From Promethearchaeota archaeon (lineage in GTDB: Archaea; Asgardarchaeota; Lokiarchaeia; Sigyniarchaeales; SOKP01), in the NCBI GenBank assembly GCA_048940645.1, contig JBHLOI010000002.1:32001-96000 (forward strand): DNA of 64,000 nt, in the 5' to 3' direction. Position 1 is the stretch's first letter. Every line of letters starts with the position of its first letter. This document shows, one piece after another, positions 2,917-49,104 of this stretch. Below the pieces are notes generated by a model. It ran no database searches. It had not been told where the DNA came from and saw only the letters and a program-made list of their open reading frames with translations. The position numbers and the translations under genes were made by a program.

Positions 2917-4008
2917 CTAAAAAAATAGGATTACAATAACAAGAACTATATTGTAGAAGGTACCTGCTAGGATTGTATTATAGATGTTATTGTTCAATTC
3001 AAAAATTATTCCCAGTAATATTGAACTTGAAAAATAGAATAAAAAAAAGAAAACACTTATCGGAAGCAAAAATACCAAATTTAATAAAGAATACACCAAA
3101 GCAACCAAAATAATTACAGTGATTCTTCCAATAATGTTGTTTTCAAAATGATTTTTTAATGTATTATGTAAAACTCCTCTAAAAACAATTTCAGAGGATA
3201 TAGTACTTATGCTCATAAAAATAATTAATATAATGTCCCATAAAAGTCCAGCTTCTCGAATAATTTGATTTTGTAAGGCAATTTCACCAGGAAGATCAAT
3301 ACCAAAAGTAATACCAGAATTATAGAGAAAATCTGTGAACATATCAGAAAAGAAACTAATCTCAAATAAAATTACACTAGATATTACTCCGATAATAAAA
3401 GCAAGTACAATCAATTTTTTACGAGATCTAAATCCTAATTTCGTAAAACTGTGTTTTTTAGAATAAATATACCATAAAGGATAAACACCAAAAATTATTT
3501 CAGGAATGTGACTTAAGAAAATTGTAAAGATATTCACATCTCCAGAAACTCCCGTTAATAACATGATAATCAATAGTCGAATAGTTATATATGCCATTAA
3601 GGAATTTCCAAAAACACTAATTCCCTCCCTCAAATTCCATATATCTTTTTTTAATATGAGTTTTTGTTCAGGTATTAATTTTTTATTTGTGAAAATGAAT
3701 CCTGAGCTTTTTTGAGGAACTTGAGATGCAACTCGCTTTTGATCTTTCGATAATTTTTCTAATTTTGTATTACAAATTGGACATTGCTCTAATATAGGAG
3801 AAGTAATTATAGAACCACATCCAGGACACTTTCTAGATACAGTTTTTTTGACTTTTAATGAGGTTGGTTCTTCAATTAAATCTACTTTTTCAGATTTCAT
3901 CTTTAAAACTAATTTCCCGCATCGGGGGCAATAAGTTTGATTCATGTCAACAGTTTCACCACAATGTACACAATATTTTACTGCTGGTTTTTTGTTATTA
4001 TCTGACAT
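2917..4008 (-). CDS. Double zinc-ribbon plus CPBP/Abi (type II CAAX protease-like) membrane protein, catalytic motifs degenerate
   Basis: Four CxxC pairs (CVHC, CPRC, CPGC, CPIC), multiple TM helices, SEIVFRG similar to EExxFRG. Confidence 0.7.
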   Translation of the reverse strand: MSDNNKKPAVKYCVHCGETVDMNQTYCPRCGKLVLKMKSEKVDLIEEPTSLKVKKTVSRKCPGCGSIITSPILEQCPICNTKLEKLSKDQKRVASQVPQKSSGFIFTNKKLIPEQKLILKKDIWNLREGISVFGNSLMAYITIRLLIIMLLTGVSGDVNIFTIFLSHIPEIIFGVYPLWYIYSKKHSFTKLGFRSRKKLIVLAFIIGVISSVILFEISFFSDMFTDFLYNSGITFGIDLPGEIALQNQIIREAGLLWDIILIIFMSISTISSEIVFRGVLHNTLKNHFENNIIGRITVIILVALVYSLLNLVFLLPISVFFFLFYFSSSILLGIIFELNNNIYNTILAGTFYNIVLVIVILFF

Positions 4009-4156: not shown

Positions 4157-5308
4157 ATGAAGAGTAGAGAAAGGGTTAAAAGAGCGTTCCATTATGAAAA
4201 ACCCGATCGAGTTCCAATGTTTAGCATGAATTTGATTAAATCAGATTTTTTATATGGTATTCTATTTAATTCAAAAATATGGCAACCTGAAAACTATCCA
4301 CCTCACGTTTCAGGAGGAGTATATTCAATTTCCAAATTATATTATCGCCTTCTTGTATATAATTGGGAGAAAAAGTTTAGAAAGAAAGCAGAATACCCAA
4401 AAAGATGGTGGAAATACCCTCATACTAGTATAGATGAGTGGAATATTTTGTGGAAATCTGCTGGAACTGAAAGCAAAGATATTACCAAAGGACATCCTTG
4501 TTTTGGTCCAATTCAGGATAATTGGGACAATTTAATCAACTTTGAAATACCTAATGGATCAAATTCAGATAGATTTCGATTAGTTCGATTTAAATTATGG
4601 AAAATCTTGGCAAAAAACAAATACACTGTAGGAGTATTAGATGTAAATGGCTTTTTCAATTTATGTTCCCAACTTAGAGGTTTTAATAACATTTTAATAG
4701 ACTTTGTGAGAAATTCTAATAAGGTGCATATATTAATAAACAAATTGGTTCCCTACTTTCTAGATCAGATAAAGGAATATAAAAGCCAATATCCAAAATT
4801 AGATGCAATATATGTAGCTGATGATCTAGGTACACAAAAGTCACCTTTCATAAGTCCGGTAATATTTAATACATTTTTTAAGAAACCTTACAAGAAAATT
4901 ATTAATTTAACACATGATTTAGATATGGATTTTATACTCCATTCATGTGGCCAAATTTTCGAACTGATGCCAAATGTCATAGATACCGGGGTTGATGTTT
5001 TTCAATTTGATAGCCCTTTAATGACTGGTGTAGAAAATTTCAAGCTGTATTCCGAACAAAGAAAGGTTGCTTTTTGGCTCTCTTCGAACATTCAGAGCAC
5101 TTACATACTTGGAACTCCGATAGATGTGGAGAATGAAATAAAATATTATATTGAGCAGATAGGGAAAAAGAATGGGGGATTAGCGATTTGCGAATATGAC
5201 TCAAATAGCACTTTAGGCACTCCCAAAGAAAATATTATAGCCCAAAGGGAAGCTACATTAAAATGGGGCATATATAATCAGGAAGGGTATATTACTTGGT
5301 TAGTATAA
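4157..5308 (+). CDS. Uroporphyrinogen decarboxylase / MtaA-CmuA methyltransferase-family protein
   Basis: MKSRERV...PDRVP start, DDLGTQ, ILHSCG, GVDV motifs. Confidence 0.8.
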   Translation: MKSRERVKRAFHYEKPDRVPMFSMNLIKSDFLYGILFNSKIWQPENYPPHVSGGVYSISKLYYRLLVYNWEKKFRKKAEYPKRWWKYPHTSIDEWNILWKSAGTESKDITKGHPCFGPIQDNWDNLINFEIPNGSNSDRFRLVRFKLWKILAKNKYTVGVLDVNGFFNLCSQLRGFNNILIDFVRNSNKVHILINKLVPYFLDQIKEYKSQYPKLDAIYVADDLGTQKSPFISPVIFNTFFKKPYKKIINLTHDLDMDFILHSCGQIFELMPNVIDTGVDVFQFDSPLMTGVENFKLYSEQRKVAFWLSSNIQSTYILGTPIDVENEIKYYIEQIGKKNGGLAICEYDSNSTLGTPKENIIAQREATLKWGIYNQEGYITWLV

Positions 5309-10940: not shown

Positions 10941-13097
10941 TTAACTAAAGTATCTTTTTTTATCAAATTCTCTATTAGATCTCCTTAGAGATTCACTTTC
11001 TCTTATTTCTTCTTCTAAATTTTCGATCTTTCTATCAATTAAATAAATTTCCTTTTGAAGATTTTTAAATGTCCTAAAATAATCAATTTCAGAAATTATC
11101 CCATTATCAAACTTTGAGTCCAATGTTTTTAGAGTTTCTTCAAGGCTATATTTTTCTTTTTCTAATTCGAGCATTTTTTTTCTTTTTATCTTCTCAACTT
11201 TAGATATTCTCTTCTTATGCATATAATTTTCCTGAGATAATGTGTAATCTGGGTTAAATAAATCCGATAAATGATTTTTAGAATATTCCCGATATATTGG
11301 CATCCTATTTTGTTCACTTCTTCTATTATTTAGTTCCATATATAACTCATCGTTAATATTATAATTATATTTATCAATAGGGTTTAATATTGGTGGATTA
11401 TTACGCTGTATTTGTTCTAATTTTCGCATTAAAATGTTTTTTTCATCTAGATCAGCAATATTTCGAATATGTGGATCCTCAAACCTTTCTGAGCGATAAT
11501 TCTGTATTCTGTTTGGATCATAAAAATTTTGGAGAAAGAAGTCATTCTCATTATAATTGGGTGGGAGATATTGCCTTAACGCATTTCCATAATATCTTAT
11601 ATCCCCAGGAGTTTGTATCTGAGAATTTCTTAAATCATAAGGATAAATATTATTCTGATAAAGCGATTGATTTTGAAAATTAGGATTAAAATTTTTATAT
11701 GCTCCTGGAGGTAAAATGGCGGGATTTTGATAAGGGTCAAAATTTTGAGGGTTTCGATTTTGATTTTGATTTTGAACAGAGTTAAATTGGACTTGTTTAA
11801 CAGGATTATATGGATTTTGAATAAAAAGATTATTATTTTTATGCTGGTTATTAAAAGTATTGTTCTGGTGGATAGTATTGTATTTACATTTTAAACTGAA
11901 AAAGGAGTTTATTGCTTCTTCAATATAATTAATTATATCTGAAAAATCTATGTCCATTTCATAAAGATTTTTAGCCGAGTCTTCATCATAGATAACACAC
12001 TCATCAAAGTTTCTAGCTAAGAGGATGTAATCCATAACTTTTGTGAGGACTTTCGGAGGAAGTGTAAATTCATATCTCCCATATTCAAATTCTACATATA
12101 GTTTTTTAAATAGCTTTCCCCTAAGTTTAATTCTAGTTAAATCTTTTACTGGAGCTTTGAAGATTGTTTTTTGTTTTTTCTTAATTTTTCCATACCTTTG
12201 TACGAAAGATAAATCAAAATTTGTTATAAAAAGAATACCTTTATTTTTTTTAAACTTATCATGATTATTTAAGCCATTGGTAAGTTTAGCATAAACTGCA
12301 TATACAGGCTTCTCTTTATCTGCTAGATTAAGATATTTCCTATATGAATTAAAAAGAATATTGATTTTGTCAATAAAGTAGAGATTCTTTTGGATGGGTT
12401 CAACGCTATTAGTTATAGTAATTATATTATTAGTAATAAATTCATTAATAGAGTGGTAATTTGTATTTAAATTTTCAAAAATGCCCTCAATAATCTTTAC
12501 ATTTGAATTTGGTTGAGTATAAATATTAAAAAAATACTCTTTATTAAGAGAAAAATGATGAAAGAGGATGCTAATCTTTTCTAATAAATTTTCCTTAGCA
12601 TAACCAAATAATTTAAACAGAGATAATAGGTCAGATTCCATATTTGGATAATGATGACATCTAATTGGAGGAGCTCTGGCTTTTTCAATTTTTTGTCTTA
12701 ATGTATACAAATTATTAAGGGCATCTCGTAGAGGATCTATAAATGTGCGAGCATTTTTAATAAGATCCAAGAATTTTTTTTCTAATTGTTCCTTTTTTTC
12801 ATAAATATTGATAATTTGATGAGAATGGCATCTAGGACAGGATTTTAATTGTTGGTTTACTAGTTTTACGTTCTCCTTTCCACAATTTTTACAGACTTTC
12901 TTTTTTCCTGAATCTAAAATCTCAATATTTTTTGAGTTACAGTCTTGACATACATAAAAATCATATTTTTCTTCATGTAGGCAATCAGAACAACAACTTG
13001 TGCCACATTCTTCACAGTAATAAGCTAACTTAATATTCCTTTGACAGAAACGACAAATTTGTATGTGTTGGTCTGACATTTTTATGATTTGATCCAA
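10941..13097 (-). CDS. Multidomain protein: Cys-rich Zn fingers, helical/coiled-coil region, PH/GRAM-like domain, N/Q/P-rich linker, C-terminal Vps23/TSG101 steadiness-box-like helix pair
   Basis: About six CxxC pairs in aa 15-90; KGILFITNFDLSF...KLYVEFEYGRYEF is PH-like; LEETLKTLDSKFDNGIISEIDYFRTFKNLQKEIY resembles the steadiness box. Confidence 0.55.
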   Translation of the reverse strand: MDQIIKMSDQHIQICRFCQRNIKLAYYCEECGTSCCSDCLHEEKYDFYVCQDCNSKNIEILDSGKKKVCKNCGKENVKLVNQQLKSCPRCHSHQIINIYEKKEQLEKKFLDLIKNARTFIDPLRDALNNLYTLRQKIEKARAPPIRCHHYPNMESDLLSLFKLFGYAKENLLEKISILFHHFSLNKEYFFNIYTQPNSNVKIIEGIFENLNTNYHSINEFITNNIITITNSVEPIQKNLYFIDKINILFNSYRKYLNLADKEKPVYAVYAKLTNGLNNHDKFKKNKGILFITNFDLSFVQRYGKIKKKQKTIFKAPVKDLTRIKLRGKLFKKLYVEFEYGRYEFTLPPKVLTKVMDYILLARNFDECVIYDEDSAKNLYEMDIDFSDIINYIEEAINSFFSLKCKYNTIHQNNTFNNQHKNNNLFIQNPYNPVKQVQFNSVQNQNQNRNPQNFDPYQNPAILPPGAYKNFNPNFQNQSLYQNNIYPYDLRNSQIQTPGDIRYYGNALRQYLPPNYNENDFFLQNFYDPNRIQNYRSERFEDPHIRNIADLDEKNILMRKLEQIQRNNPPILNPIDKYNYNINDELYMELNNRRSEQNRMPIYREYSKNHLSDLFNPDYTLSQENYMHKKRISKVEKIKRKKMLELEKEKYSLEETLKTLDSKFDNGIISEIDYFRTFKNLQKEIYLIDRKIENLEEEIRESESLRRSNREFDKKRYFS

Positions 13098-44132: not shown

Positions 44133-45233
44133 CTATACATTCCGATAAAAAGGTATAGGTACAATAATTCCTTTTAGCAATTTTCCTCGAATTTCAATTT
44201 CTAATTCTGTTCCGATTTCACTATACAGGGATTGCACTAGACCTAAGCCAATAGTTTTATCAAGTGTAGGTGAATACCCCCCAGAAGTAACATACCCAAT
44301 TTCTTGACCATCTTTAAAAATTTTATATGTGTCTCTAATAATTCCTCTTTCTATTAAATTTAAACCTACGATAATTCTCTCTGTTCCTTTTGATTTTTGA
44401 TTTAATAGAATTTCTTTCCCAATATATTCTATACCTTCTTTAGGTTTTGCGAGCCAATTTAATCCGGCTTCTATTGGAGTTATTGAATCACTAATCTCAT
44501 GACCATAAAGTGAATAACACGCCTCTAACCTCAATGAATCTCTTGCACCTAATCCGGCTGGACTTGCTCCAGTATTAATTAAGTCGTTCCAAATTTTTTC
44601 AGCATATTTATTCTCAAATGAAATTTCGAATCCTCTCTCTCCCGTATATCCAGTTCTAGCAATAAAAATAGGTATATTTTTCAGATTACAATGCGCAAAA
44701 TAAAATCGATTTATTTTTGATAGGTCTACATCGACTAAAGGTTGGAACAGTTGATCTGCTTTTGGTCCTTGAAATGCTAAACGGCAACGCTTATCTGAGA
44801 GATTGGTTATTTTAACATCTTTATTTCCAATATGATCATTTAACCATTCCAAATCCTTTTCTCTATTACTGGCATTTACTATCATTCTAAATCTTTCGGG
44901 GGTCTCCTCATAGTATACTAAATCATCAACTACCGTCCCATTCTCATAGCACATTATTGAATATTGTCCTTTAGATGGTTCTAATAGGCTTAAATCATTG
45001 ATCATTATATATTGAAGAAAAGAAATTACGTCCCTTCCCTCAAATAAAAATTCGCCCATATGTGTAATATCAAACACACCGGCATTTGAACGAATAGCCT
45101 TATGCTCTTTTATAATGCTCTCATATTGTACAGGCATATGAAAACCAGCAAATTCTACCATTTTTGCACCTAATTTAACGTGAATATCATAAAGTGGTGT
45201 TTTCTTAACATCTTGAACTTCTTGTTTCGGCAT
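44133..45233 (-). CDS. gcvT: Glycine cleavage system aminomethyltransferase T
   Basis: KTPLY, FDITHMG, RTGYTGE.GFE, GLGARDSLRLEA. Confidence 0.95.
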   Translation of the reverse strand: MPKQEVQDVKKTPLYDIHVKLGAKMVEFAGFHMPVQYESIIKEHKAIRSNAGVFDITHMGEFLFEGRDVISFLQYIMINDLSLLEPSKGQYSIMCYENGTVVDDLVYYEETPERFRMIVNASNREKDLEWLNDHIGNKDVKITNLSDKRCRLAFQGPKADQLFQPLVDVDLSKINRFYFAHCNLKNIPIFIARTGYTGERGFEISFENKYAEKIWNDLINTGASPAGLGARDSLRLEACYSLYGHEISDSITPIEAGLNWLAKPKEGIEYIGKEILLNQKSKGTERIIVGLNLIERGIIRDTYKIFKDGQEIGYVTSGGYSPTLDKTIGLGLVQSLYSEIGTELEIEIRGKLLKGIIVPIPFYRNV

Positions 45234-45394: not shown

Positions 45395-45922
45395 TTATTC
45401 TTCTACAGGTATTTCTATTAATGAAAGAATATCATAACCCTGTATTTCATCTCTGCCATGCAAACTCCCAGTTAGCTCAATTACAAATGCAATTCCAATA
45501 ACAGTTCCACCAGTTTTTTCTATTAATTTACATGCCGCTTTTGCTGTCCCTCCAGTTGCTAATAAATCATCAAATAATAAAACTTTTTCTCCCTTTTCAA
45601 TAGCGTCAATATGCATCTCAATTGTGTCTGTACCATACTCAAGTTCGTATGTCTCACTAAGTGTCTTATAAGGTAATTTTCCTGGCTTTCTAATCAAAAC
45701 AAATCCTGCACCCAATTGATAAGCAATTACGCCACCCCAAACATAACCCCTAGCCTCTATTGCTGCGACTTTATCGATTCCTTTATCCTTATAATGATTT
45801 ATTATTCGATCGCAAGATTCTTTAAAAGGGGAATACGCTTTACATAATGTTGTAACATCTTTAAATTGGATACCAGGTTTTGGCCAATCTGGGACGTTTC
45901 TTATATATTTCTCCAAATCCAT
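45395..45922 (-). CDS. apt: Adenine phosphoribosyltransferase
   Basis: PKPGIQFKD, EARG, RKPGKLP, YELEYG, DDLLATGGT. Confidence 0.95.
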   Translation of the reverse strand: MDLEKYIRNVPDWPKPGIQFKDVTTLCKAYSPFKESCDRIINHYKDKGIDKVAAIEARGYVWGGVIAYQLGAGFVLIRKPGKLPYKTLSETYELEYGTDTIEMHIDAIEKGEKVLLFDDLLATGGTAKAACKLIEKTGGTVIGIAFVIELTGSLHGRDEIQGYDILSLIEIPVEE

Positions 45923-46123
45923 TCATATAAACCTTTTACTTCTATTTACAAATTAAATTTATTTTCAGAATAATTTTAATTTCTATTTATGGTAATTAAA
46001 AATTATATTTAATTGAATCGTCAAGACTTAATTTTCTCATCAAAATTAAGAATTAGAAAAAATTATATAAAGACAATCTTATAAGAAATATATTAGACAA
46101 TCAATTTTTAATAATAGATTAAA

Positions 46124-47107
46124 ATGAAGATATTATTATTTGGTCCACAAAATGCAGGAAAGACTAGCTTAATGAGGACAACCTGCTTAGGATATAACTT
46201 CATGAAGGTTTTAAATCTAAAACCAACAAAAGGTATTTCAAGAGAGAATTTTATCTTCCGCGGTATCATGGAACTCAACTGATTTTGCCATTTCGGGAAT
46301 TTCTGAGAAGTTTGGGACGCGGGAGGCCAACAACGGTATATGGAGCGATATTTCTCAGATACACACCGAGAACTTATATTTTCAGAAGTTAAAACTGCGA
46401 TTTTTATGGCAGAATCTACTGTTATTGAGGATAGAGTAAAAGAAGTCTTTGATAAATTTTTAACCTACCTCTTTGAATTTAGCCCTCAAACAGAAACAGT
46501 TTATGTTTTATTGAATAAAATTGATTTACAAGATTCAAAGGAAGATGAACTTTATAATTTATTAATTAAGGGCATTGATAGTGATTTGAAGGAAAAACTT
46601 ATTTTTACTCCTGTGAGCGTAAAGGAGGGGAGTGCCCAACATCGTCTTATTGAAGTTTTAGATTTCGAAATTCAAAAGAATACTCTTGCATTGCAACGGC
46701 TAGGTAAAATAAGACATTTATTAGATCAACTTAAAGTTAATACTTTATCTGAATATCTTTTATTTAATCAACCAGATGGCTTGTTAATAGCTTCAACTTT
46801 GGGCAAATTTGAACATAAACCTTTACAGTTTATGAAATTTGAAATTGGAACGCTTGATTCTAATGTGTACCAGATCTTTAGTAAGATTATGGAACTAATG
46901 AATACTTCAATTTCACCTTTAGAATTAACTACTGTTATATATGAAAGTGAAAGCAATTATATTCTTGTAAAGGAAGTAAGCAATGGCTCGGTCTTAATGG
47001 CTGTTACCCATAATAAAAATAATGAAGTTTTTTCAAATGTTATGGAAACCCTCACTGGGGAGAATTTTATAAATTTAAAAAATTATTTAACTACTTCTGA
47101 TTTTTAA
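46124..47107 (+). CDS. RagA/Gtr1-like GTPase with C-terminal roadblock domain; predicted join(46124..46279,46310..47107), 317 aa
   Basis: Exon 1 (52 aa) MKILLFGPQNAGKTSLMRTTCLGYNFMKVLNLKPTKGISRENFIFRGIMELN carries G1 and G2. It is in frame with exon 2, VWDAGGQQRYMERYFS..RELIFSEV...LLNKID...PVS (G3-G5), followed by a roadblock-like tail (FNQPDGLLIAS...NYILVKEVSNGSVLMAV). The joined sequence parallels RagA ...FLGNLVLNLWDCGGQ..FMENYF... Confidence 0.88.
46280..46309 (+). other. Candidate 30-nt bulge-helix-bulge (tRNA-type) mRNA intron
   Basis: Sequence tgattttgccatttcgggaatttctgagaa, with two in-frame TGA. Central helix CUCA(46274-77)/UGAG(46304-07); 3-nt bulges ACU(46278-80) and AAG(46308-10). 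Cutting after the second bulge nucleotide on each strand excises exactly this segment. Confidence 0.8.
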
Positions 47108-47173
47108 AATATTAAAAAATTTTTTAAAATAAAAAATAAAGAATTTAGAAAAAATATCTGAAAATATTATCTA

Positions 47174-48031
47174 TTATTGTTCTTTTTCCATAAGTGTTTT
47201 TTTGGTTAATATATGTTGTTTTGCATGATGAGGCCTTCTTAAAACAGTGTCATTTGATTTTTCTATCTCTCTTGCTTGATCACACATAAAAGCCGCAGTT
47301 CTCATCATTTCATGGGCGGCTGCTAATAAAGGCATATAATCTTCTCTTTCTTTCAACACAAAGCAAGCTTTCGCTGTAACTTTTGAAACTGAAGCTGCTA
47401 ACTCAAAAGCAGCAATAGCTTTTGCTTCTGCATATGGATTAGAAAAACCAGCAGCTTTAACAGCTTTAATAGCATCAACGATTATTCTTGGCATGCTAGG
47501 AGCTGTTCCTTCAAGCATGCTCATAATTACCTTATTCAATTCTCCTGCAATAACTCGAAGTGCTCCAGTTATCGTAAGAACTTTTAACAAGTCCGAATTA
47601 AAACAACTCATTTCAGTTGGATCTAAAAAGGGTCTTCTTGCACCAATCATGCTATCACAGTTAACTAAAATGTATCCCATCCCTTTTTCTTCAATCTCTT
47701 CCACCGCCTTTTTCGCTGGAGCATCAGAAATTACAATAGTAGGAATTCCAGCCTCTTTAGCCATATCTCTAGCAGCTAATGGTCCTTTTAGAGCAGCATT
47801 CGGACTAGACATTAAAATAAGTTCTGGCTCCCACTTTAATAGATCTTTCATTGTTTCAGTACACATTTCTGGTGGATGCATTTTAGCACCTGATGTTACT
47901 TCATAGACATTAATTCTTGTAGCTTCAGCTCTTTCATCCATAAGGAATGCGAGCAATAAAGAAGAACCAATGGTTCCATTTTTAAGGATGCCGATTTTTA
48001 GTATTTTACCTTCTTCACTCATTTTTGACAC
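47174..48031 (-). CDS. mtd: F420-dependent methylenetetrahydromethanopterin dehydrogenase
   Basis: KIGILKNG, DERAE, SGAKM, SPNAALKGP, DSMIGARR.FLDPTEM, FSNPYA.AKA, AAHEMMR, RRPH. Confidence 0.95.
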   Translation of the reverse strand: MSKMSEEGKILKIGILKNGTIGSSLLLAFLMDERAEATRINVYEVTSGAKMHPPEMCTETMKDLLKWEPELILMSSPNAALKGPLAARDMAKEAGIPTIVISDAPAKKAVEEIEEKGMGYILVNCDSMIGARRPFLDPTEMSCFNSDLLKVLTITGALRVIAGELNKVIMSMLEGTAPSMPRIIVDAIKAVKAAGFSNPYAEAKAIAAFELAASVSKVTAKACFVLKEREDYMPLLAAAHEMMRTAAFMCDQAREIEKSNDTVLRRPHHAKQHILTKKTLMEKEQ

Positions 48032-48186: not shown

Positions 48187-49104
48187 ATGAAAATGGAATT
48201 AAATGGAGTTGAAATAGAAGATACTTACTGTGAAGCTTTTACTGCTGTTTTTACCAGAATTTTAGTCACAGCGAAAAATGAAAAATGGGTAAAAATAGCT
48301 AGTCAAGTAGCAACGGGTTATGGAACATCTACGATTCATTGTGATTCTGAAGCAGGCATCGATGTTTTTGTTCCATCAGAAAAGACACCAGATAAACGTC
48401 CAGGAGTCATTTTAATGTTTTTTAAAACAAAAAAAGATCAAATGGACAATGTACTATTGAATCGTATTGGACAATGCATTTTAACTTGCCCTACAACAGC
48501 ATGTTTTGATGCTATAAGTGGTTCAGTCGATCCAATTAAAGAATTCGAAATTAAAACAGGTTATAAACTGAAATTTTTTGGGGATAAATTTGAAGAAAAA
48601 ATAGAAGGAGTATTTCCTTTCGAGGCATGGAAAATTCCTGTAATGGATGGAGAGTTTATTGTTCAAAGCAATTTTAAGGTTGGGAAGGGAATCGCAGGTG
48701 GTAACTTCTTAATACTTTCAGAAAGCCAAGAATCAGGACTACAAGCTGCTGAAGCAGCAATTGAGGCGATAAAAGATGTTGAGAATGTTATTACTCCATT
48801 TCCAGGAGGAATAGCAAGGTCAGGATCAAAAGTAGGTTCAAAATATTCCTTTTTAAACGCAAGTACTAACGACCCACTTTGTCCAACATTAAGAAAGGTC
48901 AGCGAAAATTCTCAATTAGGAGAAAAGGATAATTGTGTTTATGAGGTAATTTTGGATGGAGCAATTGAGGAGTCTATAAAGAAAGCTATGAAATTAGGTA
49001 TTCAAGCATCAGTAAAAGTGCCTGGGGTTAATAAGATTTCCGCAGGAAATTATGGTGGTAAATTAGGTAAATTTCAGTACCGTTTACACGAAGTATTAAT
49101 GTAA
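48187..49104 (+). CDS. ftr: Formylmethanofuran-tetrahydromethanopterin formyltransferase
   Basis: IEDTYCEAF, TPDKRPG, RIGQCILTCPTT, IAGGNF, PFPGG..RSGSKVGS, SAGNYGGKLG. Confidence 0.95.
   Translation: MKMELNGVEIEDTYCEAFTAVFTRILVTAKNEKWVKIASQVATGYGTSTIHCDSEAGIDVFVPSEKTPDKRPGVILMFFKTKKDQMDNVLLNRIGQCILTCPTTACFDAISGSVDPIKEFEIKTGYKLKFFGDKFEEKIEGVFPFEAWKIPVMDGEFIVQSNFKVGKGIAGGNFLILSESQESGLQAAEAAIEAIKDVENVITPFPGGIARSGSKVGSKYSFLNASTNDPLCPTLRKVSENSQLGEKDNCVYEVILDGAIEESIKKAMKLGIQASVKVPGVNKISAGNYGGKLGKFQYRLHEVLM

Follow-up and report, generated by a model that had tools for sequence, protein, structure and literature searches.

The 64,000-nucleotide (nt) stretch of DNA analysed here (the window, which corresponds to positions 32001-96000 of contig C52 of the Promethearchaeota archaeon genome G000, an assembly of 3.8 Mb in 126 contigs with 29.8% G+C) contains a gene for a Gtr1/RagA-like GTPase whose coding sequence is very likely interrupted, at positions 46280-46309, by an archaeal bulge-helix-bulge (BHB) intron that would be removed from the mRNA by cleavage and ligation. 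The gene is encoded on the plus strand, as are all features of the window given below unless stated otherwise. Its frame is open from the ATG at 46124 to the stop codon at 47105-47107 and is interrupted solely by these 30 nt, which contain two in-frame TGA codons (46280-46282 and 46304-46306). Exon 1 (46124-46279) comprises 52 codons with the G1 P-loop GPQNAGKT and switch I and ends in ...GIMELN, the predicted 30-nt mini-intron lies in phase 0, and exon 2 (46310-47107) consists of 265 codons plus stop and carries the G3 motif DAGGQ, the G4 motif NKID and a C-terminal roadblock-like domain. A preliminary description of this DNA had placed a 30-nt in-frame insert with two stops between ELN and VWDAGGQ of an open reading frame (ORF) starting at ATG 46124 and had predicted that gene callers would give only a truncated 255-aa ORF or a pseudogene. 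The former can be read directly in the sequence, and the latter is borne out by public gene calls, which give a 52-aa gene and a separate 255-aa gene instead of the whole GTPase.

Sequence comparison indicates that the predicted gene product is Gtr1/RagA-like across both of its domains. When the insert is read through, the resulting 327-residue product (frame 46124-47107) matches the Pfam family Gtr1_RagA (PF04670) over residues 2-157 with 60.5 bits (cut-off 22), and in a phmmer search its residues 2-299 align with residues 5-289 of yeast Gtr1 (3r7w_A, E = 7e-13), an assignment by alignment only that covers the G domain as well as the C-terminal roadblock part. This alignment opens a 10-residue gap precisely at the insert, the yeast protein continuing from ...MTLN with LWDCGGQ, in agreement with the junction that had been proposed from a comparison with RagA. 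Rag-type GTPases have been described from Asgard archaea before (PMC10933270), and the host assignment of the preliminary description is consistent with the two intron-bearing congeners of G000, whose deposits bear the names Promethearchaeota archaeon YT2_053 and Candidatus Hermodarchaeota archaeon DZ1M.51 and which both belong to the kingdom Promethearchaeati (Asgard). The genome itself contains 39 Gtr1_RagA matches at E <= 0.001 (35 of them above the cut-off), 12 of which are at least as strong as the match of the interrupted gene, and in addition 82 Pfam Ras-family matches. Among the Gtr1_RagA matches of equal or better strength the interrupted gene is the only one in G000 to have stops inside the match. 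One Ras-family match (C46:14439-14951) had been flagged for a TAA inside it, which proved to be the ordinary terminal stop.

The borders of the insert are defined to the nucleotide by its relatives. The genus was sampled with 42 genomes, 40 of which contain an orthologue, and seven further orthologues were taken from three sister families. In 37 of the 40 genus orthologues N52 is joined straight to V (ENFIFRGIMELN directly followed by VWDAGGQ, or near variants), and the extra 30 nt, each time with two TGA codons, follow N52 only in G000, G045 and G020; all seven sister-family orthologues are without the insert as well. In total, 44 intron-less orthologues thus lack precisely these 30 nt, and since moving the border by one base either way would alter the Asn or the Val, homology fixes the intron at 46280-46309. 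The same holds on the DNA level: in contigs of relatives from two metagenomes the match to the window ends at 46279 and is followed by GTTTGGGAT or GTCTGGGAT, that is, by exon 2 directly joined. The interrupted version is found in independent assemblies too. A Logan contig from a DNA run is identical to the window across 45995-46391, insert included, and the insert is likewise present in a mangrove-metagenome contig of a separate study that covers 46047-46803. When the 52-aa peptide of exon 1 was looked up by exact identity, eight more contigs (NCBI, JGI, ENA and Logan) with the insert at the same site were obtained, so that further public insert-bearing contigs number at least 8. Five of these eight reach far enough downstream, and in each of them a second ORF of ~255 aa is called 57 nt further on. 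Within G000 the intron is single copy; a 26-nt likeness to it on contig C6 was discarded, as it falls in an ordinary ORF on the opposite strand. Pattern scans for more alleles yielded, among JGI metagenome contigs, a pair of unrelated matches within a single other gene and, among genome contigs, the two known congeners plus one chance match in Chryseobacterium and no new allele.

The RNA spanning the insert can be folded into a BHB motif (46271-46313) by pairing CUCA (46274-46277) with UGAG (46304-46307) in a central helix, which leaves the bulges ACU (46278-46280) and AAG (46308-46310). On the inner side the pairs G46281-C46303 and A46282-U46302 lead into the intron hairpin (46281-46303), and on the outer side A46273-U46311, A46272-U46312 and G46271.U46313 form the outer helix (46271-46273/46311-46313). 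The preliminary description had folded this motif by hand, and every pair that it named is present in the sequence. It had further claimed that the rule by which the tRNA splicing endonuclease EndA cuts reproduces the borders expected from homology. The rule as stated for the cbf5 intron, between the second and third residue of the bulge (PMC2738675), sets the cuts at 46279/46280 and 46309/46310, and these are exactly the borders obtained from the 44 orthologues and from yeast Gtr1. An equally good BHB (four Watson-Crick pairs in the central helix, two inner pairs and 3/3 outer pairs) at a fixed border with L = 30 is found at 9.5e-5 of random G000 positions, and at 1.1e-3 of such positions under relaxed rules. 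The minimum free energy (MFE) structure calculated with ViennaRNA for 46254-46326 (-24.0 kcal/mol, z = -2.47, 4 of 200 shuffles equally good) includes the central helix, the ACU bulge and the inner pairs with the intron hairpin. A search of the whole window against Rfam gave no match at gathering score, with chance-level matches alone around the gene.

The MFE structure also contains an 8-bp exon-exon helix, or clamp, which sits 8 nt and 4 nt outside the outer helix on its two strands. Its 5' strand (CUUCCGCG, 46255-46262) derives from the rare codons TTC and CGC and its 3' strand (CGCGGGAG, 46318-46325) lies within the G3 codons GAC GCG GGA GG, with 95.8% of the cells of the 3' strand being paired across alleles. 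The exon half of the motif makes use of the rare codons CTC, AAC, TTC and CGC (the shares of TTC and CGC in G000 are 0.20 and 0.042, respectively), and the intron-less sister G047 has TTT AGA in the place of the 5' strand of the clamp. However, the exon-2 strand GACGCGGGAGG is unchanged in G047 and hence not intron-specific, for which reason the rare codons close to the intron lend it less support than one might think at first.

Variation among the intron alleles supports the proposed structure, without proving it. The aligned alleles include four distinct intron sequences, and contig X5 adds a fifth. The central helix is paired in all six distinct alleles, and the proposed structure is 93.9% paired as compared to 32-53% when the partners are slid against each other. 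The intron of G020 differs from that of G000 at five of its 30 nt and these changes alter four of the ten residues that would result from read-through, while the flanking 52 aa are identical; in the RNA they convert a U-A pair of the hairpin to C-G and a G.G mismatch to G.U, and the remaining ones fall in the loop and in an unpaired stretch. At locus L060 and on contig X5, A46306 is replaced by G, a change that turns the second TGA into TGG and leaves the central helix paired at this position as U.G. In another allele type, substitutions affect a mismatched base of the hairpin and position 2 of the 3' bulge. Judged by these alleles, it is the shape of the RNA that appears to be conserved and not the inserted peptide, nor would the stop codons seem to be the conserved feature of the insert.

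Several observations weigh against the interpretation of the insert as an intron. No RNA run is listed among the sequencing runs that contain the locus. With only A-U, A-U and G.U pairs, the outer helix is missing from the MFE structure, enforcing the full BHB comes at a cost of +3.8 kcal/mol over the MFE, and in G020 the outer helix is retained only via a register shift that leaves one extra A unpaired. There are also internal mismatches in the intron hairpin. Covariation amounts to one double-sided change (the U-A to C-G conversion) and two wobble-preserving ones, a score that is reached by 65 of 500 shuffles (six distinct rows); another shuffle control (164 of 500) is non-significant too, with too few distinct alleles. 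Because covariation thus has too few alleles to draw on, we rely on the precision of the borders and on selection instead. Finally, TGA is not always a stop in G000, since HdrA-like genes of this genome, to which we return below, probably use it for selenocysteine.

How, then, would the GTPase be produced from such a gene? We propose that the gene is transcribed with the insert included and that in the pre-mRNA the exon CUCA pairs with the intron UGAG to create the two 3-nt bulges, the motif being stabilised by the short intron hairpin and by exon-exon pairing. A two-subunit EndA would then cleave 3' of the second nucleotide in both bulges (46279/46280 and 46309/46310), and RtcB would join the exons to ...GAA CUC AAC/GUU UGG GAC..., which would encode a 317-aa GTPase-roadblock protein. 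The predicted spliced junction reads GAACTCAAC joined to GTTTGGGAC, and the predicted junction peptide is GIMELNVWDAGGQQR, within ...GIMELNVWDAGGQ....

The enzymes that this scheme calls for are encoded in G000, which contains two tRNA_int_endo (EndA) paralogues of 201 aa and 205 aa and one RtcB, the EndA genes lying at 1456-2058 of locus L044 and at 1426-2040 of locus L045, both on the minus strand, and the RtcB gene at locus L046. As read by eye, the 201-aa EndA appears to have the Tyr/His/Lys pattern expected of a catalytic subunit and in the 205-aa EndA the His is missing, and the pair would thereby have the layout of a two-subunit enzyme. PMC5829648 ascribes to two-subunit EndA a broad substrate range and the ability to cut relaxed motifs, and a census of Asgard EndA has been presented (bioRxiv 10.64898/2026.10.13.758758). 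With regard to the tRNA genes of G000, which is 90% complete, ARAGORN reports only 13, six of them with introns; most of the tRNA genes of this genome probably escape detection because their introns are non-canonical or multiple.

But could the insert not simply have inactivated the gene? A neutral or disabling insertion, for instance the footprint of a mobile element, would account for the two in-frame stops and for the splitting of the gene by gene callers, and loss of the GTPase might be compensated by paralogous GTPases, given the 12 Gtr1_RagA matches of at least equal strength and the 82 Ras matches. We consider this explanation improbable. The 52-aa exon-1 peptide is identical in G000, G045 and G020, and between G000 and G020 exon 1 has accumulated 14 synonymous and 0 nonsynonymous differences. 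In exon 2, dN/dS ranges from 0.04 to 0.13 between intron-bearing alleles (0.05 for G000/G020 and 0.13 for G000/G045). No insert-bearing allele contains any further stop or frameshift, and both ORFs are intact in the at least eight further contigs. In three species and these contigs, both exons thus evolve under strong purifying selection, which argues that the GTPase gene is not a pseudogene. Moreover, inactivation is at odds with the finding that the BHB core is kept while the would-be peptide changes, and with the fit of the insert borders to the EndA cut rule.

Highly improbable, too, is that the locus gives rise to two products, the 52-aa peptide and a 255-aa protein starting at ATG 46340, with splicing being absent or only regulatory. 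An ATG is present at 46340, 13 nt downstream of a GGAGG (46322-46326), and gene callers do predict the 255-aa gene. However, the intron-less orthologues share both GGAGG and ATG, and because these encode G-G and Met there, they are no evidence of an internal start. The codons at 46310-46339 (VWDAGGQQRY), which lie upstream of ATG 46340 and would not be part of the shorter protein, are conserved. In addition, the G domain of a P-loop GTPase that lacks G1-G3 does not bind nucleotide, and the shorter protein would therefore not be expected to do so.

Translational recoding, by which TGA would be decoded as selenocysteine or some other amino acid, or ribosomes would hop over the insert, is in our view barely plausible, even though G000 offers a precedent of a kind. 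Its HdrA-like genes contain the motif ...PTDDC(A/G)I-TGA... (C13 ~4749-4820 and C107 ~11248-11352, both on the minus strand, and C77 ~3591-3614 on the plus strand), the TGA being in frame and at what we take to be the position of the known selenocysteine residue, and G000 probably reads some TGA codons as selenocysteine in these genes. The insert is in frame besides, and a stop followed by a hairpin after the last codon of exon 1 is reminiscent of known bypass sites. Yet neither yeast Gtr1 nor any of the 44 intron-less orthologues has the ten codons, so that no Cys or selenocysteine is aligned with them, and the residues that they encode would fall in the strand directly before the DxxG motif. 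The difference of four in ten read-through residues between G000 and G020, next to 52 identical ones, and the replacement of the second TGA by TGG in an allele do not suit a translated insert either. Rfam gave no match such as a selenocysteine insertion sequence (SECIS) in 45900-47400 at E up to 10, its coverage of archaeal SECIS elements being uncertain. As to a hop, the codon preceding GTT is GAA, unlike the required take-off codon AAC. An assembly or sequencing artefact, finally, which the preliminary description had itself named as fatal to its proposal and which would mean that the 30 nt are not in real DNA, is already refuted by the identical Logan contig, the mangrove contig, the metagenome-assembled genomes of the two other species and the eight contigs from NCBI, JGI, ENA and Logan.

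The BHB intron appears to have a history of its own, which it shares with the exon preceding it. Exon 1 (156 nt) of G000 is closer to that of the likewise intron-bearing G020 (142/156, 91% identity) than to that of the intron-less sister G047 (123/156, 79%), whereas in exon 2 G000 shares 78% identity with G020 and 94% with G047, and in the 1.4 kb upstream the respective values are 79% and 94%. On a tree of the whole coding sequence the distribution of the intron requires two changes. The exon-1 tree unites the three intron alleles in one clade (96/93 support), but exon 2 rejects this clade (approximately unbiased (AU) test, p = 4.9e-6, log-likelihood difference 149; the group was defined by the trait beforehand, as the AU test permits), and the history of the upstream 1.4 kb agrees with exon 2. 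The tract in question, consisting of a short leader, exon 1 and the intron (46097-46309), is common to the intron-bearing species and not to the intron-less sisters; as read from the alignment, its 5' edge is located ~30 nt upstream of the ATG, just past a conserved TATA-like block. Since dS is 0.69 in exon 1 as opposed to about 2 in exon 2, the patch would have been transferred after the lineages split. As the simplest reading we infer that the intron arose once and that homologous recombination later carried a patch of ~210 bp from one lineage of the genus to another.

Is the GTPase gene the only one of its kind in G000? A genome-wide scan for BHB motifs produced 6352 raw hits that join ORFs, the bulk of them neighbouring genes or noise from AT-rich sequence. 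Filtering for strict helices left 56 with one convincing case, in a VWA_CoxE gene on contig C72, and rejected the Rag GTPase intron, which makes helix strength a poor filter; a filter for continuity with paralogues kept 76 with two convincing cases, the Rag GTPase intron and that on C72. The latter, a predicted intron of 30 nt as well (C72 6691-6720, minus strand; 692-721 of locus L052), forms a near-perfect hBHBh' structure with an outer helix of 7 bp, the central helix AGCA/UGCU, a 10-bp hairpin and a 3' bulge AA/G as in the Rag intron, and a 93%-identical VWA_CoxE copy at the end of contig C12 is without intron and reads ...VVGDAAMASWE... across the junction. Three more inserts split conserved motifs of core genes: a 30-nt insert in purA (C54 14730-14759, plus strand) the GDEGKGK loop (GD/EGKGK), a 31-nt insert in the gene for ribosomal protein S27ae (C88 49889-49919, minus strand) a conserved motif of this protein, and a 31-nt insert in the mevalonate kinase gene (C114 14316-14346, minus strand) the GE/H motif. 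All three introduce either a frameshift or a stop; a hairpin is seen in the MFE structures of the S27ae and mevalonate kinase inserts. When parsed by hand, the Rag, C72, S27ae and mevalonate kinase inserts share one order of elements, namely one bulge nucleotide, a short hairpin, four nucleotides of the central helix and two bulge nucleotides; in the purA insert, parsing was confined to the bulges and the central helix. It is likely that the genus routinely splices its mRNAs, with hairpin mini-introns of ~30 nt in many protein genes, among them the Rag GTPase gene and the core genes for S27ae, purA, mevalonate kinase and phosphofructokinase, which the enzymes of tRNA splicing would excise and which would spread between species as small exon-plus-intron patches.

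In the window, the GTPase gene is flanked on one side by gcvT (44133-45233) and a phosphoribosyltransferase gene (45395-45922), both on the minus strand, and on the other side by the gene for methylene-H4MPT (tetrahydromethanopterin) dehydrogenase Mtd (47174-48031, minus strand) and an Ftr-like ORF (48187-49104, plus strand), and the same neighbours accompany it on other contigs. Upstream of its start codon a TATA-like box (TTATATAAAG, 46063-46072), a putative promoter element, lies within a block that is conserved in 9/9 aligned loci. The leaders between this block and the coding start are 70-90 nt longer in the intron-less G047, G010 and G018 (loci L032, L006 and L007), in which ATT replaces the ATG and a TTG three codons upstream is the probable start; a short leader together with the ATG is found in the intron-bearing alleles and in G013, G022 and G019.

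If the intron is spliced as proposed, an Asgard archaeon needs mRNA splicing in order to make a Rag/Gtr1-type GTPase, a eukaryote-signature protein. If moreover the genus does splice many of its mRNAs, then the closest archaeal relatives of eukaryotes would already have protein genes with interruptions and an mRNA splicing that they cannot do without, achieved in a way that has nothing to do with the spliceosome. For the origin of eukaryotic gene structure, several such introns in G000 alone make the question directly testable with RNA from enrichment cultures of Asgard archaea. Wherever mini-introns of this type occur, the proteomes of Asgard archaea, and with them the tallies of eukaryotic signature proteins, would be distorted. 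The discordant exon histories, in turn, provide a testable picture of how BHB introns may spread, that is, via replacement of short exon-plus-intron patches.

An EndA-type mRNA intron as such is known from cbf5, and what is new here is the phylum and the gene. The preliminary description knew of no account of a BHB intron in an Asgard protein gene, and our literature search, which left most subscription journals outside its scope, likewise found no paper on BHB introns in Asgard protein genes, the mRNA cases that it did find being confined to cbf5 of Crenarchaeota and the 5' UTR of Haloferax HVO_1309. It had also named cbf5 as the classic mRNA case, rightly so: the BHB intron in the pre-mRNA of this pseudouridine synthase gene is documented for Desulfurococcales and Sulfolobales (Watanabe 2002; Yokobori 2009, PMC2738675) and was still listed in 2020 as the only other case of an mRNA BHB intron besides HVO_1309 (PMC7714728). 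Both the cbf5 and the Rag intron are short, non-spliceosomal interruptions of an archaeal coding sequence with a BHB-type fold and with cuts (predicted ones in the Rag gene), between the second and third bulge residue, at the exon borders. In both cases the host has a heteromeric EndA, the distribution among relatives is patchy, which implies gain and loss, and gene predictions are confused. They differ in host, Crenarchaeota as opposed to Asgard archaea, and in the gene concerned, a pseudouridine synthase gene as opposed to that of a Rag/Gtr1-like GTPase. The Rag intron is merely 30 nt long, in phase 0 and with two stops, and there is evidence that it has travelled between species together with its upstream exon. 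For cbf5 splicing was demonstrated by cDNA and in vitro cleavage, whereas that of the Rag intron is predicted from DNA, and whereas cbf5 was reported as the sole confirmed case in a coding sequence (PMC7714728), G000 appears to contain several.

Asgard tRNA genes are heavily interrupted by BHB introns (bioRxiv 10.64898/2026.10.13.758758). The introns of archaeal tRNA and rRNA have the same motif as the Rag intron and presumably depend on the same enzymes, EndA and RtcB, in Asgard hosts too. The Rag intron, however, has no tRNA body that would aid its recognition, and as it resides in an mRNA the exon half of its motif must be built from codons. Closer in this respect is the HVO_1309 mRNA of Haloferax volcanii, in which a BHB intron of the 5' UTR is cut by EndA as confirmed in vivo and in vitro (Schwarz 2020, PMC7714728). 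In both a BHB in an mRNA serves as EndA substrate, by prediction in the case of the Rag intron, but that of HVO_1309 is placed in the untranslated leader and leaves the frame uninterrupted, whereas removal of the Rag intron would be required for the full-length protein. In eukaryotes, the HAC1 and XBP1 mRNAs lose a short intron independently of the spliceosome, an endonuclease acting on stem-loops and then a tRNA ligase, which in animals is RtcB, and the encoded protein is altered as a result. There the endonuclease is Ire1, the motif is not a BHB, and removal of the intron is a stress-regulated switch. The Rag intron would resemble HAC1/XBP1 in the endonuclease-plus-ligase route taken by an mRNA and in the effect on the protein, and is set apart from it by its BHB motif and by EndA as the predicted endonuclease.

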